Below, in pieces: positions 32,101 through 38,948 of a stretch of DNA of 58,123 nucleotides; the stretch's first letter is position 1, and every line of letters starts with the position of its first letter. The notes under the pieces are model-generated. The model was not told where the DNA came from. It ran no database searches and saw only the letters and a list, made by a program, of their open reading frames with translations. Made by a program: the position numbers and the translations under genes. The stretch comes from a virus. Lineage: Duplodnaviria > Caudoviricetes. The stretch covers positions 1 through 58,123 of IMG/VR virus record IMGVR_UViG_3300028025_003736. One strand, 5' to 3'.

Positions 32101-34545
32101 CTAAACGGATTAACTGCTAACACACAATATTTTGCAGTAGGAACAGCAGGAACTGATTTTGCAATTAGTTCTTTATCGGATACGCATACATTTAATCTCC
32201 CTACTGCATCTGCAACAAATAGAGGGGCATTAAGTTCTGCCGATTGGACAACATTTAATGGTAAGCAAAACGCTATAACATTAACTACTACAGGAACAAG
32301 TGGGGCTGCAACATTAGTAGGTGCAACTTTAAATATACCACAATATCAAGCAGCAGGTACTTATGTTACATCGGTTACAGGTACAAGTCCTATTGTATCA
32401 AGTGGAGGTACAACTCCTGCTATTTCTATTCCTGCTGCGACTACATCTGTGAACGGATATTTAACTTCAACAGATTGGACAACATTTAATGGTAAGTTTA
32501 ACCTTCCATCCCTTACAAGCGGTTCAGTCCTATTCAGCAACGGCACAACCATAGCACAAGACAATGCTAACTTCTTTTGGGATGATACTAATAATAGATT
32601 AGGTATAGGTACTGCAACTCCATACTCAAGATTATCAATTAATGGAAACGCTGCAGATTTTAACTCTGCAAGTACAAAAATATCTGTATATGCTGATGGT
32701 TCTTCTACTTATGGTATTGGATTTTCAAAATATACGAATTATGGATTAGGTCTTTTCTCGGCTAATAATTTTACAGATTCTCCAAGAGTATTTATTGAAA
32801 GTACAGGTAACGTAGGTATAGGTACTACAAGTCCTGCTGCTAAATTAGAGGTTGCTGGAGATATTAAAGTATTAAGTACAGGTGCAGCTATTTATGCTTC
32901 AACTGAAGGTGTATATTTTGCTGGTACTGTAAATGGAAATTATTTATCATTTTCAACTAATAGTGCCGAAAGAGCAAGAATTACAAATGGTGGTAACGTA
33001 CTAATAGGTAATACAACAAATAGATTAAGGTTAACGGTTAGTGGTGCTGATGCAAATGCACCTACATTAGGAACTGCAAGCGGTACTACTGTTTTTGCAA
33101 ATGCAGCAGTTACTACACAATATGGTATGAACTTCGGCATATCAAGTTCGGGATATGGGTGGATTCAACAACATAGATTTGATGGTACTGCAACTGCATA
33201 CGCATTAGCATTACAGCCAAGTGGTGGTCGTGTATTGATAGGCACAGCAACAGACAATGGCACAGATAGGTTGCAGGTAAGTGGGAGTTCCACATTCTCA
33301 AGTAGTGTAACGGCAACACAGTTTAATGGCAAGTTATATACAGGTGCAACATATAATTTTGAAGGTGGATATTTTGGAAAATCAAGTGGAAATGGTGGTG
33401 CTTTATTAGAATTATTAGGACATGGCGGAGTAAGTACATCAAATGGGTTTGCTCTTAGATATGATACAGATGTTAGCGGAAATTTATTATTTCAGTATGC
33501 AGGTTCTCAAGCTACATATGGTGCTTTATCATACTCTACGATATTACAATTAACAAGTGCAGGTGCAGCCACATTTAGTTCATCTGTAACGGCTTCATCA
33601 CTTATTAAGAGTGGTGGTACATCAGCACAAATATTAGCAGCAGATGGTTCGGTAATAACAGCAGGAACGAACATCACAATAAGTGGTGGAACGATAAGTG
33701 CAAGTGGCGGTGGTACAGTTACAGGAACAGGAACAACTAACTACATACCTAAATTTACAGGTGCAAGTGCATTAGGGGATAGTGCAATATCACAATCAGC
33801 AACTGGCAATAGAATATTGATAGGTGCAACTGATGATACTACAAGTAAATTAAGGGTAAGTGGTGCAACAAGAACATCAACATTGATTGTTGATGCAGGT
33901 ACTGCATCTGTAGCACCAATAAACTTTACATTATCAAGTGCTGCATTAATGACAAACAACCTCGCTGGAGATGTAGAGGTTAATAGTGCTGGTCATTTAT
34001 ATTATAGTTTTTGGGATGAAATTAGGGGTGTAGTAAATGCAGAACAGTTCTTAACAAATACATCTACATATACACTAACATCTACAATATCATCACAAAA
34101 ATTATTTAACGTAGGGCCATTATCTGGTAATGCTGGGGCATTAACTGTAAAGCCTTCTACGACATATTTTTTTGAATGTATGTTTTCATTAACATCAATG
34201 AGTTCTACAAGTGGTAGTGCAAGATTTGATTTAAAAGGTGCAGGAACAGCAGGGGTATCAAGTACAGCTTATTCTGCAACTGGAATTGATATAAGTACTA
34301 TTACAAGTAGTAATTTTCTTAATGGAGTATTTAGCAATAGTATAATTTCTACAGAATTAGTTACTGGTGGAGTTGGAACAGGTATGTGGGTACAAATTAA
34401 AGGGATATTTAGAACTAACGGTACTGCTGGAACAATAATCCCATCAATTCAATTAGTAACGGCAGCAGCAGCAATAGTAGGTGTTAACTCATTTTTTAGA
34501 GTATATCCAATAGGCTCAGATACTGCGAATTATCAAGGTCAATAA
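29134..34545 (+). CDS. long tail fibre protein
   Basis: 1803 aa, T/G/S-rich, internal repeats, NRLGIGTATP and GNVGIGTTSP fibre motifs common in Bacteroidetes phages. Confidence 0.88.
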   Translation: MAYSIGQITTILLKADKTMYKLGDVAYDNMFSELDEAYDYERDIIFIYKKAVEYADDYFVGTLKLDQIVDRLASKLNIYDYGTLSPLYVDVYTQVDQGLNVIYVLKSTALSLGAGLTGDSDFSQSDININLDYAYLDTVYVIDGRTLTINGTTYDLSANRTWSVGTVTSVSALTLGTTGTDLSSTVANSTTTPTITLNVPTASATNRGALSSADWTIFNGKQGAIILTTTGSSGSSTLIGTTLNIPNYTLGGLGGVPASRQLTINGTSYDLSADRSWNVGTVTSVDMSVPTGLTISGNPITSSGTLAIGLASGYSIPTTANQTNWTTAYNDSIVSAAVTGTTTKTLTLTQQDAGTITASWTDINTDAVTSVFGRTGAVVAAEGDYTLTQLGDVTITTPSTNQVLKYNGTAWVNSADTDTGITSLNGLTALTQTFATGTSGSDFNISSGTSTHTFNLPTASATNRGLLSTSDWTLFNGKESALTFSSPLSRATNTISIPAATTSVNGYLTSTDWTTFNNKVGGSGTSGQIAYWNGTATQTGSADFAWDNTNKYLVSNIGLSGYVKLAQTGWNSGFIQTAYSNFIFGSNLRYDGTQWIYDQSGFGVQFQADSFNGYLQLNTATSGTGGNTATINPRLRILNDGRTFLGTSIVTDDTTSSLQVGGSGRFTGTLKLDTINAATTDTDKFLVSDGGIIKFRTGTEILSDIGGQGSLTLTTTGTSGAATLIGNTLNVPQYEAEGNYVTTATTLTINGTTYDLSANRSWSVGTVTSVGLSMPVAFSVSNTPITSSGTLAVTAVGTSSQYIRGDGQLATLPSGSSGGSSVNYYLNGSVNQGTIGGSVYYEMNRSAIIGVGTDFTRTNGSGNGLIAQFITDVADPNRLEIPGGAWNFEMYFSASSSGGSPTFYVELLKYNGTTFTSIASNVSNAEVITGGTTIDLYVSSLAVPQTTLLATDRLAIRVYITTSGKDITLHTEDNHLCEIITTFAGGVSSLNGLTANTQYFAVGTAGTDFAISSLSDTHTFNLPTASATNRGALSSADWTTFNGKQNAITLTTTGTSGAATLVGATLNIPQYQAAGTYVTSVTGTSPIVSSGGTTPAISIPAATTSVNGYLTSTDWTTFNGKFNLPSLTSGSVLFSNGTTIAQDNANFFWDDTNNRLGIGTATPYSRLSINGNAADFNSASTKISVYADGSSTYGIGFSKYTNYGLGLFSANNFTDSPRVFIESTGNVGIGTTSPAAKLEVAGDIKVLSTGAAIYASTEGVYFAGTVNGNYLSFSTNSAERARITNGGNVLIGNTTNRLRLTVSGADANAPTLGTASGTTVFANAAVTTQYGMNFGISSSGYGWIQQHRFDGTATAYALALQPSGGRVLIGTATDNGTDRLQVSGSSTFSSSVTATQFNGKLYTGATYNFEGGYFGKSSGNGGALLELLGHGGVSTSNGFALRYDTDVSGNLLFQYAGSQATYGALSYSTILQLTSAGAATFSSSVTASSLIKSGGTSAQILAADGSVITAGTNITISGGTISASGGGTVTGTGTTNYIPKFTGASALGDSAISQSATGNRILIGATDDTTSKLRVSGATRTSTLIVDAGTASVAPINFTLSSAALMTNNLAGDVEVNSAGHLYYSFWDEIRGVVNAEQFLTNTSTYTLTSTISSQKLFNVGPLSGNAGALTVKPSTTYFFECMFSLTSMSSTSGSARFDLKGAGTAGVSSTAYSATGIDISTITSSNFLNGVFSNSIISTELVTGGVGTGMWVQIKGIFRTNGTAGTIIPSIQLVTAAAAIVGVNSFFRVYPIGSDTANYQGQ
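29569..32492 (+). repeat. modular peptide repeats in tail fibre shaft
   Basis: LTINGTxYDLSAxRxWxVGTVTSV x3; PTASATNRGxLSxxDWTxFNGK x3; LTTTGxSGxxTLxGxTLNxPxY x3; ISIPAATTSVNGYLTSTDWTTFN x2; SLNGLTAxTQxFA...THTFNL x2. Confidence 0.85.
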
Positions 34546-35444: not shown

Positions 35445-35476
35445 AAAGGCTCCTATCTTTGGGGCCTTTTATTTTT
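35445..35476 (+). terminator. intrinsic terminator
   Basis: AAAGGCTCC-TATCTTT-GGGGCCTTT followed by TATTTTT. Confidence 0.7.
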
Positions 35477-35514: not shown

Positions 35515-36144
35515 ATGAAGTATCATATAATATATTCTGGGATTATACTAGTCTTGGCTATAGTATTATTTAGGTCTGAATGCAGCATGTCTGATAATAT
35601 TAAAAATGAGATAAAGATAGATGGGAAGAAGTACGATGTAATAAAGACCGATACAGACACAGTATTTGTAAAAGTAAATCCAGATGTTGTATATAAATCT
35701 GGTAAAAATATATACCGGGACACTACGATATATAGAGATGTACCATCATTTGGATTGTCTGACGCAGGTGCCGAGGTTATTCAACAGTACTACGACTCTA
35801 TTTTGATGTCTCACTTTGCTACAAACGTATATATTGATACCATAAAATTCGGGAAGTATGGTAGCTTGTACATTAAAGATTCTATACAAGAGAACAAAAT
35901 ACTGTCTAGGGAGTCAAATTCTGACCTAATGTTCCCTAGTGTAACAAATACTACAATAGTTAAGGAAAAGCCCAAGAATCAGCTATATTTAGGTGCTAGA
36001 GGCATATTTGCAAATGGCGCAGTATCTGGAGTGGGTACAGGCCTTATTTTAAAGTCTAAGAAGGACAGGTTGTATGGTGTTGGGGCTATTATAGACGGTA
36101 AAAAAAATATTAACTTTGCCTTAGATTTTTATATTAAACTATAG
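35515..36144 (+). CDS. membrane-anchored lysis-region protein (spanin candidate)
   Basis: N-terminal hydrophobic helix, DTV/DTT/DTI repeats, C-terminal amphipathic beta strands ending FYIKL. Confidence 0.5.
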   Translation: MKYHIIYSGIILVLAIVLFRSECSMSDNIKNEIKIDGKKYDVIKTDTDTVFVKVNPDVVYKSGKNIYRDTTIYRDVPSFGLSDAGAEVIQQYYDSILMSHFATNVYIDTIKFGKYGSLYIKDSIQENKILSRESNSDLMFPSVTNTTIVKEKPKNQLYLGARGIFANGAVSGVGTGLILKSKKDRLYGVGAIIDGKKNINFALDFYIKL

Positions 36145-36150
36145 GGTAAT

Positions 36151-36489
36151 TTGGAAAATTTTATTAAAAACTTTTTAGGAGGTGGATGGGTAGTATTACT
36201 CATTGGAGCAGCCGGTATGGTTGCTAGACTTGTTACAACAAACGAGAATCAATCGGGTATTGATGTAGTAAAAAAGATGGTAAGCTCTATTATAGCATCT
36301 CTTATTGCTTGGTTTGTCATGGAGCAGTTTGAGATAAACTCTATGTATAAGGCCGTTGCTTATGGTCTAGTTGGATTAAATAGTCCAGAGATTATAAATG
36401 GAGTTTTAAAGATAAGTGGGCAATTCGCAGCAGACCCAATGTCATTTATAAAAAAAGAGAAACCTAAACCAACAAGAAGAAGAAAATGA
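36151..36489 (+). CDS. holin-like membrane protein (about 3 TM, basic C-tail)
   Basis: Hydrophobic segments WVVLLIGAAGMVARLV, SSIIASLIAWFVM, AVAYGLVGL; KPKPTRRRK tail; TTG start. Confidence 0.55.
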   Translation: MENFIKNFLGGGWVVLLIGAAGMVARLVTTNENQSGIDVVKKMVSSIIASLIAWFVMEQFEINSMYKAVAYGLVGLNSPEIINGVLKISGQFAADPMSFIKKEKPKPTRRRK

Positions 36490-37145
36490 AAAATACACTA
36501 CTAATCATATTAACTGCTATAATATTAGCAATAGCAGCATTTGGAAAATATGTAGAAAACACTATTAAGCAAACGGCTATAAGCGTTTATGAGGACAGGT
36601 TAGTACCTCAACCATATTTGAGCCGAAAGTTTGATTATTACGGCTCAACAATACAAGACCAAATTAAAGTTATAAAGGGCGGTAAGATAGACTTGGTTGC
36701 AATCCAAAAGGAAAAAGACATAACAGATACAATGTGGGCAGCCTATCTTAGAACTTACCAAACAGGAGATGAAAAAGAGGTAAGCGACAAAGCTCAAATA
36801 TTTATTGATACGGCAGATGCTTGTTTTGAAAATATTTCAGCAGACGGTATTGTTACAGATGATGAGGCAAAAGAAATGGATGCAAAGATTTATCCTGTCT
36901 TAAAGTATGTAAATGACTTAATAGACATCCAAACAACTATTGGAGCAAGAGATACCAAGGGGATGATTGAGCTTCTTGATAAATTTGCCAATTTTATGAT
37001 AGGAGCTATTGCCATTGCTGTTGTTCTTTTAGGTTCTATCGTTTACGACATGCTTAAAAAACCTATTTCGACAAAGAGAGTAGTAAGGAAAGTTATAAAA
37101 AAGGCACCAGTTAAAAAAGCAGCAGTTAAAAAGAAAATTAAATGA
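36486..37145 (+). CDS. stand-alone chemoreceptor four-helix-bundle (4HB_MCP-like) sensor with two TM helices
   Basis: TM1, SVYEDRLVP, WAAYLRTYQTGDEKEV, IYPVLKYVNDLIDIQ, TM2; no HAMP or signalling domain; Lys-rich tail. Confidence 0.75.
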   Translation: MKNTLLIILTAIILAIAAFGKYVENTIKQTAISVYEDRLVPQPYLSRKFDYYGSTIQDQIKVIKGGKIDLVAIQKEKDITDTMWAAYLRTYQTGDEKEVSDKAQIFIDTADACFENISADGIVTDDEAKEMDAKIYPVLKYVNDLIDIQTTIGARDTKGMIELLDKFANFMIGAIAIAVVLLGSIVYDMLKKPISTKRVVRKVIKKAPVKKAAVKKKIK

Positions 37146-37576
37146 GGATAATATTTATTATATTATTTTTTATTGCTTTAGAATCAAAGGCTCAGTATTA
37201 TATTATGGCTGCACCTAACGTAGCTTTTGATACGCCACTGAGAGATACTAAAAACCTATTAGGTGGAACAGTTGAGGTAGGAAAGTATTTTGGAGATATA
37301 GCAGTTGGGATTAATAGTGGTTGGTGGACTTATGATAGTAAGGATTTTTACCAGGAACTTATGGTTACATTTCCTATTTACGGAAGGTTTAGTATAAGTT
37401 CAGCCATTGGGTATTTTTACTATTATAAGGATATTACTATGGAATATGACTTAAATTATACACTACCTTTGAAAAAAGAATATTCATTTGTTTTTAGTTA
37501 TGGCGCTCAAAGTGCTTTTGGTGGAACATTTGGCTCTTATTCCGTAGGTATTAATAAAGATTTTAAAATAAAATAA
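37142..37576 (+). CDS. small outer-membrane beta-barrel protein
   Basis: Signal peptide ending SKA/Q, about eight alternating aromatic/Gly strands, terminal strand YSVGINKDF. Confidence 0.7.
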   Translation: MRIIFIILFFIALESKAQYYIMAAPNVAFDTPLRDTKNLLGGTVEVGKYFGDIAVGINSGWWTYDSKDFYQELMVTFPIYGRFSISSAIGYFYYYKDITMEYDLNYTLPLKKEYSFVFSYGAQSAFGGTFGSYSVGINKDFKIK

Positions 37577-37577
37577 A

Positions 37578-37838
37578 ATGAAAAAGTTTTTTAATTTTAT
37601 AGGAGGTTTCTTTTCTTCGGATAGTAATAACTCATCTAAAAGACTTGTAGGTATTATTGGTGCTCTAGTACTATTTTATACACTATGGGACAATTCAAGG
37701 TCTGAGGCACATATTGCTCCAGCAGAATCTCTTGTATGGGGCACTGTAACCCTTGTTGCCGTTTCTCTTGGACTTACCACTGTGGAGTCTATTGGGAATC
37801 TAATTAATTCTTTTAAGGGAAATAAAAAAGAAGATTAA
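37578..37838 (+). CDS. holin-like 2-TM protein
   Basis: SSKRLVGIIGALVLFYTLW and LVWGTVTLVAVSLGLT; immediately upstream of the endolysin. Confidence 0.6.
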   Translation: MKKFFNFIGGFFSSDSNNSSKRLVGIIGALVLFYTLWDNSRSEAHIAPAESLVWGTVTLVAVSLGLTTVESIGNLINSFKGNKKED

Positions 37839-37840
37839 CA

Positions 37841-38440
37841 ATGAATACTAGTAAGCTAAATGTAAAAATACCACCAGCAGTCTTAGAAGAACTTCCTTCT
37901 GTGATGGAGAAATTTTCAATAAATACTCCACTAAGGCTTGCTCATTTTCTTTCTCAGGTAGCTCACGAGTCTGGGAACTTTAAATTTCTAAAGGAGAACT
38001 TAAACTACGGAGCAGCAGGTCTTAGGACTACATTCCCAAAGTATTTTAAGGATGATATTACAGCAAAACAGTATGAAAGAAATCAAGAGAAGATAGCTAA
38101 CAGAGTATATTCAAGTAGGATGGGAAATGGAGATGAGGCATCTGGAGACGGATGGAAGTTTAGGGGAAGGGGGTATATTCAGCTTACTGGTAAAGTAAAC
38201 TATACAGAATTCGATAAAGTAGTAGATGATGATATATTGTCTAATCCAGATTTAGTATCAAATAAATATCCACTATTATCTGCTGCATGGTTTTGGAATA
38301 GCAGAAATTTAAACGAATTAGCGGATAAAGGAAATACAGATTTAGATGTCACAAATATTACAAAAAAGGTCAATGGAGGAGTACATGGACTAGCTGACCG
38401 TATATCTAAATTTAAACTGTTTATCGTTGAACTTGTGTAG
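37841..38440 (+). CDS. endolysin, glycoside hydrolase family 19
   Basis: LAHFLSQVAHESG, ENLNY, GDGWKFRGRGYIQLTGK, SAAWFW, TKKVNGGVHGLADR. Confidence 0.93.
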   Translation: MNTSKLNVKIPPAVLEELPSVMEKFSINTPLRLAHFLSQVAHESGNFKFLKENLNYGAAGLRTTFPKYFKDDITAKQYERNQEKIANRVYSSRMGNGDEASGDGWKFRGRGYIQLTGKVNYTEFDKVVDDDILSNPDLVSNKYPLLSAAWFWNSRNLNELADKGNTDLDVTNITKKVNGGVHGLADRISKFKLFIVELV

Positions 38441-38503
38441 ATTCACAAGCATATTGCGTATATATCTATACATGATTTATATTTGTATATATATGTAATT
38501 AAA

Positions 38504-38686
38504 ATGAATCAAGACTTTGACATATTAGGGATTCCATCAACAATCATGACCTGGTTATTCTTTTTTGATGTAGTCAAAATCAACCCTTTAGTTACATTCT
38601 TCGTGAGTATTATGTCTTTGGTTTGGTTATCTTTGCAGATATACGGCTGGATTGAAAAGCGTATAAATAAAAATGGCAAAAAATAA
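38504..38686 (+). CDS. small membrane protein (holin/antiholin candidate)
   Basis: 60 aa from ATG 38504; hydrophobic core and basic C-terminus; promoter box at 38478. Confidence 0.5.
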   Translation: MNQDFDILGIPSTIMTWLFFFDVVKINPLVTFFVSIMSLVWLSLQIYGWIEKRINKNGKK

Positions 38687-38948
38687 TAATGCAGGAAATC
38701 ATCCATCTTATAATGGATGGAGTTCATCTTCCATAGAAAGGAAGAGGAAATATGATAAAGAATATCATCAATCAGAAGAAAGGATAGAATATAGGGCTAA
38801 GTTAAATAAAGCCAATAGGGATGCTGGAACCTATGGGAATGGCGATGGCAAGGATATGAGCCATACAAAATCAGGAAAGTTTAAGTTAGAATTAAGCAGG
38901 ATTAACAGAGCGAGAAATGGTAGGAATGGTAAGTCAACTAAGGCTTAA
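38673..38948 (+). CDS. small basic HNH-related protein
   Basis: GDGKDMSH...SRINRARN degenerate HNH pattern. Confidence 0.5.
   Translation: MAKNNNAGNHPSYNGWSSSSIERKRKYDKEYHQSEERIEYRAKLNKANRDAGTYGNGDGKDMSHTKSGKFKLELSRINRARNGRNGKSTKA

Follow-up and report, generated by a model that had tools for sequence, protein, structure and literature searches.

A predicted chemoreceptor-type sensor domain co-inherited with a holin candidate and an outer-membrane-type barrel beside phage endolysin genes

Why would a phage carry, close to the gene of its endolysin, what looks like the input half of a bacterial chemoreceptor? This question is raised by the IMG/VR virus record IMGVR_UViG_3300028025_003736, which is 58,123 bases long with a completeness estimate of 54%, and the whole of which is referred to below as the window. 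Three consecutive genes of its plus strand, here called A (36151–36489, 112 amino acids), B (36486–37145, 219 amino acids) and C (37142–37576, 144 amino acids), appear to encode a holin candidate of the LydA type, a stand-alone sensor domain of the 4HB_MCP_1 type, and a leader followed by an eight-stranded beta-barrel of the outer-membrane type, respectively. An initial annotation of the locus, made from the sequence alone, had described the three genes as coupled by ATGA overlaps, and the coordinates of the open reading frames (ORFs) agree with this: A and B overlap at 36486–36489, B and C at 37142–37145.

Conservation of the three-gene module

Relatives of B are found on 60 viral contigs and relatives of C at 80 loci, many of them on the same contigs. 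Once identical stretches are removed, there are 61 distinct complete stretches from A to C, and the order A-B-C is kept in all of them; six further loci are incomplete, each of them truncated by the end of the locus or of the contig. The junction between A and B is an overlap of 4 nucleotides (nt) in 45 stretches and a gap of 1–5 nt in the other 16, while B and C share 4 nt in 44 stretches and a single nt in 14, and are separated by 7 nt in the remaining 3. The coupling of the three genes is therefore beyond chance. The same order is seen in remote relatives: among loci whose C protein is 38–50% identical to that of the window, A-B-C is kept in 18 of 19 (the 19th is cut), and a GH19 gene directly follows C in 14 of these 18.

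The genes that flank the module vary. With D standing for a small gene with two hydrophobic segments and E for the GH19 endolysin gene, the order is ABCD in 24 of the 61 stretches, ABCE in 15, DABCE in 15, DABC in 4 and ABCDE in 3. Three loci that were checked individually, and which do not amount to a census, lack a GH19 gene and have an endolysin gene of another class right beside the module, which encodes Peptidase_M15_3 in L068 (5643–6107) and L095 (5676–6140), and Phage_lysozyme in L081 (5437–5883). The module stays fixed while the endolysin is swapped among three classes, which is best understood if the module is part of the lysis apparatus. The proposal that the trio is a unit inherited next to endolysins is thus supported by all 61 stretches, which are on viral contigs.

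The trio does not appear to be a gene set of bacterial chromosomes that is only occasionally borrowed by phages: it was found on viral contigs only, and the search of the genomes of 185,579 species with patterns derived from B gave 32 pattern matches and no relative. A genome scan with one pattern derived from C gave 72 matches, of which one is a relative. Such scans depend on a few conserved peptides, so that distant relatives can escape. The single relative is on a contig of a Bacteroidetes metagenome-assembled genome (L133:5780–6558); it is a C-terminal fragment, 39% identical to C and with no intact frame, which lies just before an ORF that combines a peptidoglycan-binding-like N-terminus with a GH19 part, and which is preceded by bacterial-looking genes (including an ABC permease-like ORF). 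Conceivable origins are the edge of a prophage, a remnant and a chimera produced by binning; the contig hints at a host among the Bacteroidota. No match to A, to B, to a distant orthologue of B, or to C was obtained by tblastn in 50,697 deposited phage records. The carrier is probably an uncultured group of tailed phages of Bacteroidota.

The three proteins

The layout of B consists of a first transmembrane (TM) helix (TM1, residues ~1–21), a periplasmic four-helix bundle (~22–165), a second TM helix (TM2, ~166–191) and a tail rich in Lys, Arg and Pro (192–219). In the AlphaFold2 (AF2) model, whose mean predicted local distance difference test (pLDDT) is 74.6, the helices cover residues 2–38, 42–62, 70–88, 94–117 and 125–191: TM1 runs into helix 1, with a kink at residues 39–41, two shorter helices follow, and the long helix 4 continues into TM2. 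The tail is disordered from residue 196. The modeled protein thus folds as a bundle, in line with the initial annotation, which had recognized in B the TM1-bundle-TM2 module of the 4HB_MCP_1 family.

The assignment to this family comes from the orthologues. The window's copy of B matches no Pfam or PHROG family at E ≤ 1. The gathering score of 4HB_MCP_1 (PF12729, a profile of 181 positions) is 27 bits, and among six distant orthologues of B, which were reached through the neighboring gene C and recognized by synteny and by 37–45% identity, five are above this value (36.7, 35.3, 31.5, 28.8 and 28.0 bits) and the sixth scores 26.6; their matches extend from positions 11–14 to position 174 of the profile. 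All of the 22 close members examined also match 4HB_MCP_1 at E ≤ 10 (the best at 1.6e-5, and four of the close relatives with 17.4–22.8 bits), and TarH is matched by 9 of the 22. The gathering score is therefore reached by orthologues of the B family and not by the copy of the window taken alone. The family is large, with 417 clusters (at 90% identity) at E ≤ 0.01. Its nearest neighbor in the ESM Atlas is a viral cluster of proteins of about 230 amino acids, 95% of whose members carry PF12729.

Comparisons of the model with known structures point in the same direction. The top Foldseek match is the ligand-binding domain (LBD) of the chemoreceptor Vc1313 (E 0.03), and the LBD of Tar (2lig) is matched with a TMt of 0.63 and a root-mean-square deviation of 3.4; the lower matches are to the sensor domains of Tar, KinB, NarQ and PcaY, with OspC-type bundles interleaved, and the E-values of all these matches, the top one included, are weak. 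VIA-align, run against 48,161 chains, ranks the LBD of McpN first (Z 12.5), then LytS-N (12.4) and NarQ (12.2), but values below about 13 are common for helical bundles and the tool itself regards Z ~12 as ambiguous. The alignment with NarQ covers 180 residues and includes both TM helices. The next ranks are held by Vc1313, HK9, PilJ, Adeh_2942 and QseE (Z 10.9). Since such values are usual for bundles, the fold supports the result of the profile search and does not prove it by itself. A profile search with the alignment of close B sequences against the sequences of the PDB returned only a chance match in a TM region (NADH dehydrogenase chain 6, E 1.7).

At E ≤ 10, no match to HAMP, to the signaling domain of methyl-accepting chemotaxis proteins (MCP), to a kinase or to a cyclase is found in any of the 22 members, and only 28 residues, of basic character, follow TM2. 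The earlier statement that B lacks these domains and ends in a mere Lys-rich tail is thus extended to the family, the tail being rich in Lys and Arg. This suggests that B is a stand-alone sensor domain of the 4HB_MCP_1 type and not a chemoreceptor. Among the 120 homologues listed, which are 80–95% identical, 8 were automatically named "methyl-accepting chemotaxis protein" by the Joint Genome Institute (JGI); in the absence of HAMP and MCP signaling domains, this name is a misnomer. No fused or longer form of B, of 420–2000 amino acids, was found, which is weak evidence by the tool's own rating.

The constraints on the sequence of B are concentrated in three places: an invariant DRLxPxP..S..FDYYG stretch in helix 1, the residues W84, Y87, T90, Y91 and E96 around helix 2, and TM2, which is the most conserved part and contains eight invariant columns (F167, F170, G173, A176, L181, G183, S184 and Y187). 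The small residues of TM2 (G173, A176, G183 and S184), together with the Gly/Ala-rich TM1 of A, are compatible with packing between helices inside the membrane.

Regarding A, the TTG is the only start codon after the in-frame stop at 36142–36144, and the residues from this TTG onward are conserved in orthologues that start with ATG. The protein has a Gly/Ala-rich TM1, a second TM helix, a third hydrophobic or amphipathic stretch with an invariant GLNSPE, and a basic tail. TM1, GGWVVLLIGAAGM.ARL, is invariant at 15 of 18 columns in 23 sequences whose identity goes down to 46%. A matches the LydA family (PF16083) at E 4.1e-4, with 20.9 bits for a gathering cut-off of 28.4, and phrog_6384, annotated "holin", at E 4.4e-6. 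Among five distant orthologues, PF16083 is matched by two (19.1 and 18.0 bits) and not by the other three, while holin PHROGs (6384, 785 and 1527) are weakly matched by all five. A also has the layout that is expected of a holin: it is small, with at least two TM helices and a charged C-terminal tail, and it is encoded in the same block as an endolysin. We consider A as a candidate holin on the basis of these weak but repeated matches, which do not establish that it belongs to the LydA-type family.

A and B (at 36400–36489 and 37060–37145, respectively) both end in cytoplasmic tails rich in Lys, Arg and Pro. In a distant subgroup the two tails are longer together, by about 10 residues in A and about 8 in B. 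It is possible that this joint lengthening is a sign of a common cytoplasmic partner or constraint.

The third protein, C, begins with a hydrophobic leader (residues ~1–18) which ends in ...SKA|QYY, as judged by eye and without a signal-peptide predictor. The AF2 model (pLDDT 86.4) has eight strands after the leader helix, and the 11 Foldseek matches at E ≤ 0.001 are all membrane beta-barrels, with a probability of 1.00: the TM domain of OmpA, Ail, the porin PorB and designed TM barrels are among them, and OmpX, OprF-N and NspA are just below the threshold. The pattern of a leader and about eight strands that was noticed at first sight is thus recovered in the model, and we are confident in the prediction that C is a minimal eight-stranded barrel of the outer-membrane type. 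In seven distant homologues the last residue is Phe (...KDF or ...KQF), as is usual for outer-membrane barrels, and in the group of the window's C a KIK is added after this C-terminal Phe. The family is narrow: in a set of 1.84 billion proteins, clustering at 50% identity leaves 19 representatives. In 22 members of C there is no match to any Pfam family, and none at E ≤ 10 to the barrel families OMP_b-brl, OmpA_membrane, Ail_Lom and OmpW; no PHROG matches C either. A neighboring cluster in the ESM Atlas is 73% OMP_b-brl, which we take as a lead only.

The loops of C are very short. Its periplasmic turns are the least conserved part (0.32–0.48, over six columns only), and the outward loops (0.61–0.65) are about as conserved as the strands (0.63–0.75). 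The leader of the window's C contains no lipobox Cys, and there is no periplasmic extension in the model. An enzymatic barrel of the PagP/PagL type was considered and rejected: there is no His among the invariant or nearly invariant columns, and such barrels are not among the fold matches listed, which is weak evidence.

The surrounding genes

Large ORFs occupy the plus strand of the window from about 3 kb to 34.5 kb; those of 1344, 2150 and 1803 amino acids look like tail or fiber genes. The last of these ends at 34545, and directly downstream of the tail-fiber genes is a block of six genes in the order g209-A-B-C-D-E, all on the plus strand, with intergenic spacings of 6, -4, -4, 1 and 2 nt. 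The trio is at the 3' end of the plus-strand block, and minus-strand genes begin at 39.1 kb. No tRNA gene was found in the window. A terminator-like hairpin with a T-run (35445–35469, plus strand), located between g145 and g209, is likely to be the upstream boundary of the six-gene block; it was detected by a consensus scan only, which gives 3 sites in the window versus 1.8 ± 1.4 in shuffled sequences.

The initial annotation had placed the trio between a spanin candidate and a holin-endolysin pair, behind a TAACTTTG promoter box. The position between g209 on one side and D and E on the other is correct, but the similarity to holin families is found in A, inside the trio, and not in D, the presumed holin of that pair. 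The box (36111–36118, plus strand), which fits TAnnTTTG, exists, but it is inside the coding sequence of g209 and is neither enriched nor conserved. The motif TAnnTTTG occurs 87 times in the window versus 76.2 ± 8.0 times in shuffled sequences (12 of 100 shuffles reach 87), and of the 32 distinct stretches of 70 nt that precede A in related contigs, only 2 contain it. In these contigs A simply abuts whichever gene comes before. We attach no significance to the box.

The tight block opens with g209 (35515–36144), whose product of 209 amino acids has a hydrophobic segment near its N-terminus and closes with a Gly-rich, strand-like part that ends in FYIKL. It has no family match and is poorly conserved (26–40% identity, in certain relatives only); the relatives in L022 (3102–3647) and L045 (2940–3593) end in GYSLKL and SYWKIK. 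The product of g209 could itself be an envelope-spanning lysis protein. D (37578–37838, 86 amino acids, two hydrophobic segments) matches no Pfam or PHROG family, relatives being found for instance at L114:79–321 and L125:3560–3808, and in related contigs it accompanies the trio but switches between a position just before A and one after C. D could serve as the true holin, as an additional one or as an antiholin. E (37841–38440) is a GH19 endolysin without an N-terminal membrane segment, which matches PF00182 with 34.2 bits and phrog_181 at E 2.6e-72. In a DNA search with the block, only the part of E has relatives in deposited phages, which are Flavobacterium and Cellulophaga phages (68–73% identity).

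In four relatives (L049:3188–3619, L053:920–1351, L054:528–959 and L057:3185–3616), the gene directly upstream of A is an ORF of 143 amino acids with a lipobox (LLLTSC) and, at its C-terminus, a TM helix and a final KRK or KKK. Its architecture is that of a unimolecular spanin. It matches no lysis PHROG, and phrog_884, of unknown function, is matched at E 0.0024. In four others (L007:3356–3616, L023:1873–2175, L046:3207–3491 and L048:3343–3660), the region just upstream of A encodes short proteins in which a single TM helix is combined with a charged, coiled-coil-like segment. The one in L007 weakly matches phrog_10340 holin/anti-holin (E 0.0047), which is the only lysis annotation that PHROG gives for the upstream neighbors. 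The upstream flank of the module thus appears as a hot spot of varied small membrane proteins. Downstream of E, the window contains (38483–38948) a hydrophobic ORF of 67 amino acids and a basic ORF of 91 amino acids, without any match in Pfam. In L010 both have relatives behind the endolysin (55% and 76% identity), and in L011 and L014 the 91-amino-acid ORF has a match far downstream on the opposite strand (63%).

Possible roles and known systems

A recognizable signal-input domain is wired into a lysis block, with an integral outer-membrane protein at its side, in an arrangement that is deeply conserved and independent of the type of endolysin. The interpretation that we tentatively favor, and to which we give somewhat less than an even chance, is that g209-A-B-C-D-E is a multi-component lysis operon whose core is the trio, and that B and C are accessory to a holin-centered module of which B is the regulator. 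The operon would come last in the block of late structural genes. A would be the hole-forming or hole-nucleating holin, of the LydA type. B would be the inner-membrane partner of the holin system, with a bundle that reads something in the periplasm, and it would delay or license the triggering of the holin in the manner of an antiholin or of another regulator of lysis timing. C, which is made with B, would be its outer-membrane counterpart and would report or change the state of the outer membrane or of the cell surface. Since B has neither a kinase nor a methyl-accepting output, it could act only via the pair of TM helices and the short tail of basic character. The overlap of the A and B genes, and the fact that TM helices with small residues are the most conserved part of both proteins, are the reasons why we favor a role of B within the membrane, as a partner of the holin system.

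The mechanism put forward in the initial annotation, a ligand-gated timing of lysis in which the barrel would let in a ligand that the bundle detects, and the TM helices would in turn gate the holin, is plausible as one interpretation among several. A more specific proposal is that B is a new kind of antiholin, a stripped chemoreceptor-type sensor that couples a periplasmic or surface cue to holin triggering with C as a co-sensor. The trio would then be a lysis clock gated by a ligand, and would occur widely in uncultured phages of probable Bacteroidota hosts. The cue could then be a small molecule from the host or from the environment, damage to the envelope, or a superinfecting phage. We regard this specific form as rather unlikely. 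No antiholin family is found among the Pfam and PHROG matches of B at E ≤ 1, which makes it less probable that B is an RI protein, not that it works like an antiholin.

Several observations weigh against a regulation of the holin by B. The window's copy of B scores 8.7 bits with 4HB_MCP_1 (E 1.6), over residues 6–47 only, in the region of TM1, so that its membership of the family depends on the orthologues and on the fold, for which the Z-scores are in the ambiguous range mentioned above. All the Pfam holin matches of A are under the curated cut-offs. A has only short periplasmic loops, which makes a periplasmic contact of the RI-T type impossible; a contact between A and B could only occur inside or beneath the membrane. 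It could also be that the real holin is D, or B itself, which has two TM helices and a basic tail; a large periplasmic domain such as that of B is also carried by the holin T of phage T4. As to C, the low conservation of the periplasmic turns does not favor a conserved interface with B on that side, and the conservation pattern of the protein fits a role at the surface as well as a partnership with B. The prediction of a complex between A and B (residues 1–195) from alignments gave an ipSAE of 0.00 in both runs, without controls, and argues neither for nor against binding.

The same genes can be understood in other ways. B and C might disrupt the outer membrane, as a non-canonical substitute for a two-component spanin. 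In pairs of i-spanin and o-spanin, the gene of the inner-membrane protein comes before that of the outer-membrane protein and overlaps it, and the succession of B and C mirrors this; moreover, nothing in the window's cassette matches a PHROG or Pfam spanin, and the module is strictly conserved beside endolysins. However, an i-spanin is anchored by one TM helix at its N-terminus and has its C-terminus free in the periplasm, whereas the second TM helix of B would put both of its ends in the inner membrane, and the helices of the bundle, of about 40 residues in the model, appear too short to cross the periplasm. Nor does the window's C, whose mature form would be a barrel, have the lipobox Cys or the periplasmic extension of an o-spanin. 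Finally, in the subgroup of L049, L053, L054 and L057, the spanin function seems to be separately supplied by the 143-amino-acid ORF, judging from its architecture only. We therefore consider a substitute for spanins as improbable. 

It is unlikely, if less so, that B and C are a late pair devoted to superinfection exclusion or to the protection of the progeny, which would share the lysis operon for its timing only; C would mask or occupy a receptor or the surface, and B would block the entry of DNA at the inner membrane. Receptor-blocking genes of the cor and llp type adjoin the tail-fiber genes of other phages, and here too the block directly follows tail-fiber genes. The outward loops of C would also fit, as their conservation equals that of the strands, contrary to what is usual in outer-membrane proteins. 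On the contrary, B and C are coupled to the holin-like A in all 61 stretches and travel with it while the tail-fiber and upstream genes differ, they have no conserved promoter of their own, and they show no PHROG or Pfam similarity to known exclusion proteins. The explanation with the least support, and which we judge very unlikely, is that B and C are a cassette captured from a host (a moron) with a function apart from lysis, such as interference with host signaling. It would be in keeping with the existence of bacterial stand-alone 4HB proteins of about 250 amino acids (1071 members in one ESM Atlas cluster, of which 94% carry PF12729, matched with a score of 0.94) and with the small barrel clusters of Bacteroidota that are among the nearest neighbors of C, both being leads only. 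But the species genomes that were scanned contain no relative of B and a single fragment of C, which is itself next to a GH19 gene, the search for fused longer forms of B was negative (weak evidence, as said), and the deep conservation within a lysis block, with translational coupling, is not what a moron would lead one to expect.

If B gates the holin, external chemistry would directly set the timing of the burst in abundant environmental phages, and the trio, as a compact sensor-to-lysis switch, would also interest biotechnology. Should B and C act instead on the outer membrane, they would be a further solution to the last step of the lysis of Gram-negative cells. Either way, the trio is a concrete and testable three-gene unit for research on lysis. 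Each component taken by itself is already known, be it the lysis cassette, the LydA-type holin, the 4HB sensor domain or the small outer-membrane barrel. Most of the knowledge of phage lysis comes from a few coliphages, and the holins and spanins of Bacteroidota phages are mostly unassigned. In the open-access text searched, we found no published description of a stand-alone chemoreceptor-type sensor and an integral barrel encoded between a holin-like gene and an endolysin. In passages of a survey of flavophages, only "proteins with TMDs" (TM domains) are reported beside GH19 enzymes (PMC8776804).

The sensors of the 4HB_MCP_1/TarH type (Tar, Vc1313, McpN, NarQ and QseE, for instance) have the same succession of TM1, up-down bundle and TM2 as B. 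Unlike them, B is encoded by a phage in a putative lysis operon, lacks any HAMP, methyl-accepting, kinase or cyclase module, and has a helix 1 that is kinked at the invariant DRLxPxP...FDYYG motif. An inner-membrane 4HB sensor paired with an outer-membrane protein has a precedent, in logic, in QseG-QseE, where the outer-membrane protein acts on the bundle sensor, judging from the title of the PDB entry 9m08. QseG is however a lipoprotein which reaches into the periplasm, and QseE has a kinase output, whereas C is predicted to be an integral barrel with very short periplasmic turns.

C shares its eight antiparallel strands, its leader and (in distant homologues) its aromatic C-terminal strand with the TM domain of OmpA, OmpX/Ail/Lom, OprF-N and NspA, and Lom of phage lambda is an example of a small barrel that is borne by a phage. 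C differs from these proteins in that none of its 22 members matches a Pfam barrel family, its loops are extremely short, and it is coupled to lysis genes instead of being a moron expressed in the lysogen. Spanins, either two-component or unimolecular, resemble B and C in their position in the cassette and in the pairing of inner and outer membrane, but B has two TM helices and C is a barrel without a lipobox.

The closest parallels to a regulated holin are found in coliphages. In P1, lydB follows lydA, and likewise A, whose best Pfam match is PF16083, is directly followed by a co-translated partner gene. A is however below the cut-off of this family (20.9 versus 28.4 bits), and B is a membrane protein with a predicted periplasmic sensor fold, with no similarity to any antiholin family of Pfam or PHROG. 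The lysis inhibition of T4 involves the holin T, which carries a large periplasmic domain, the antiholin RI, and RIII; it is not known to have an outer-membrane component. No similarity of sequence or family between these proteins and those of the trio was found in Pfam or PHROG, nor does A, as the candidate holin, offer a periplasmic domain for a periplasmic contact. What the two systems may share is a logic, in which a regulator that faces the periplasm could retard the holin in response to an external cue (on the T4 system, PMC11413866).

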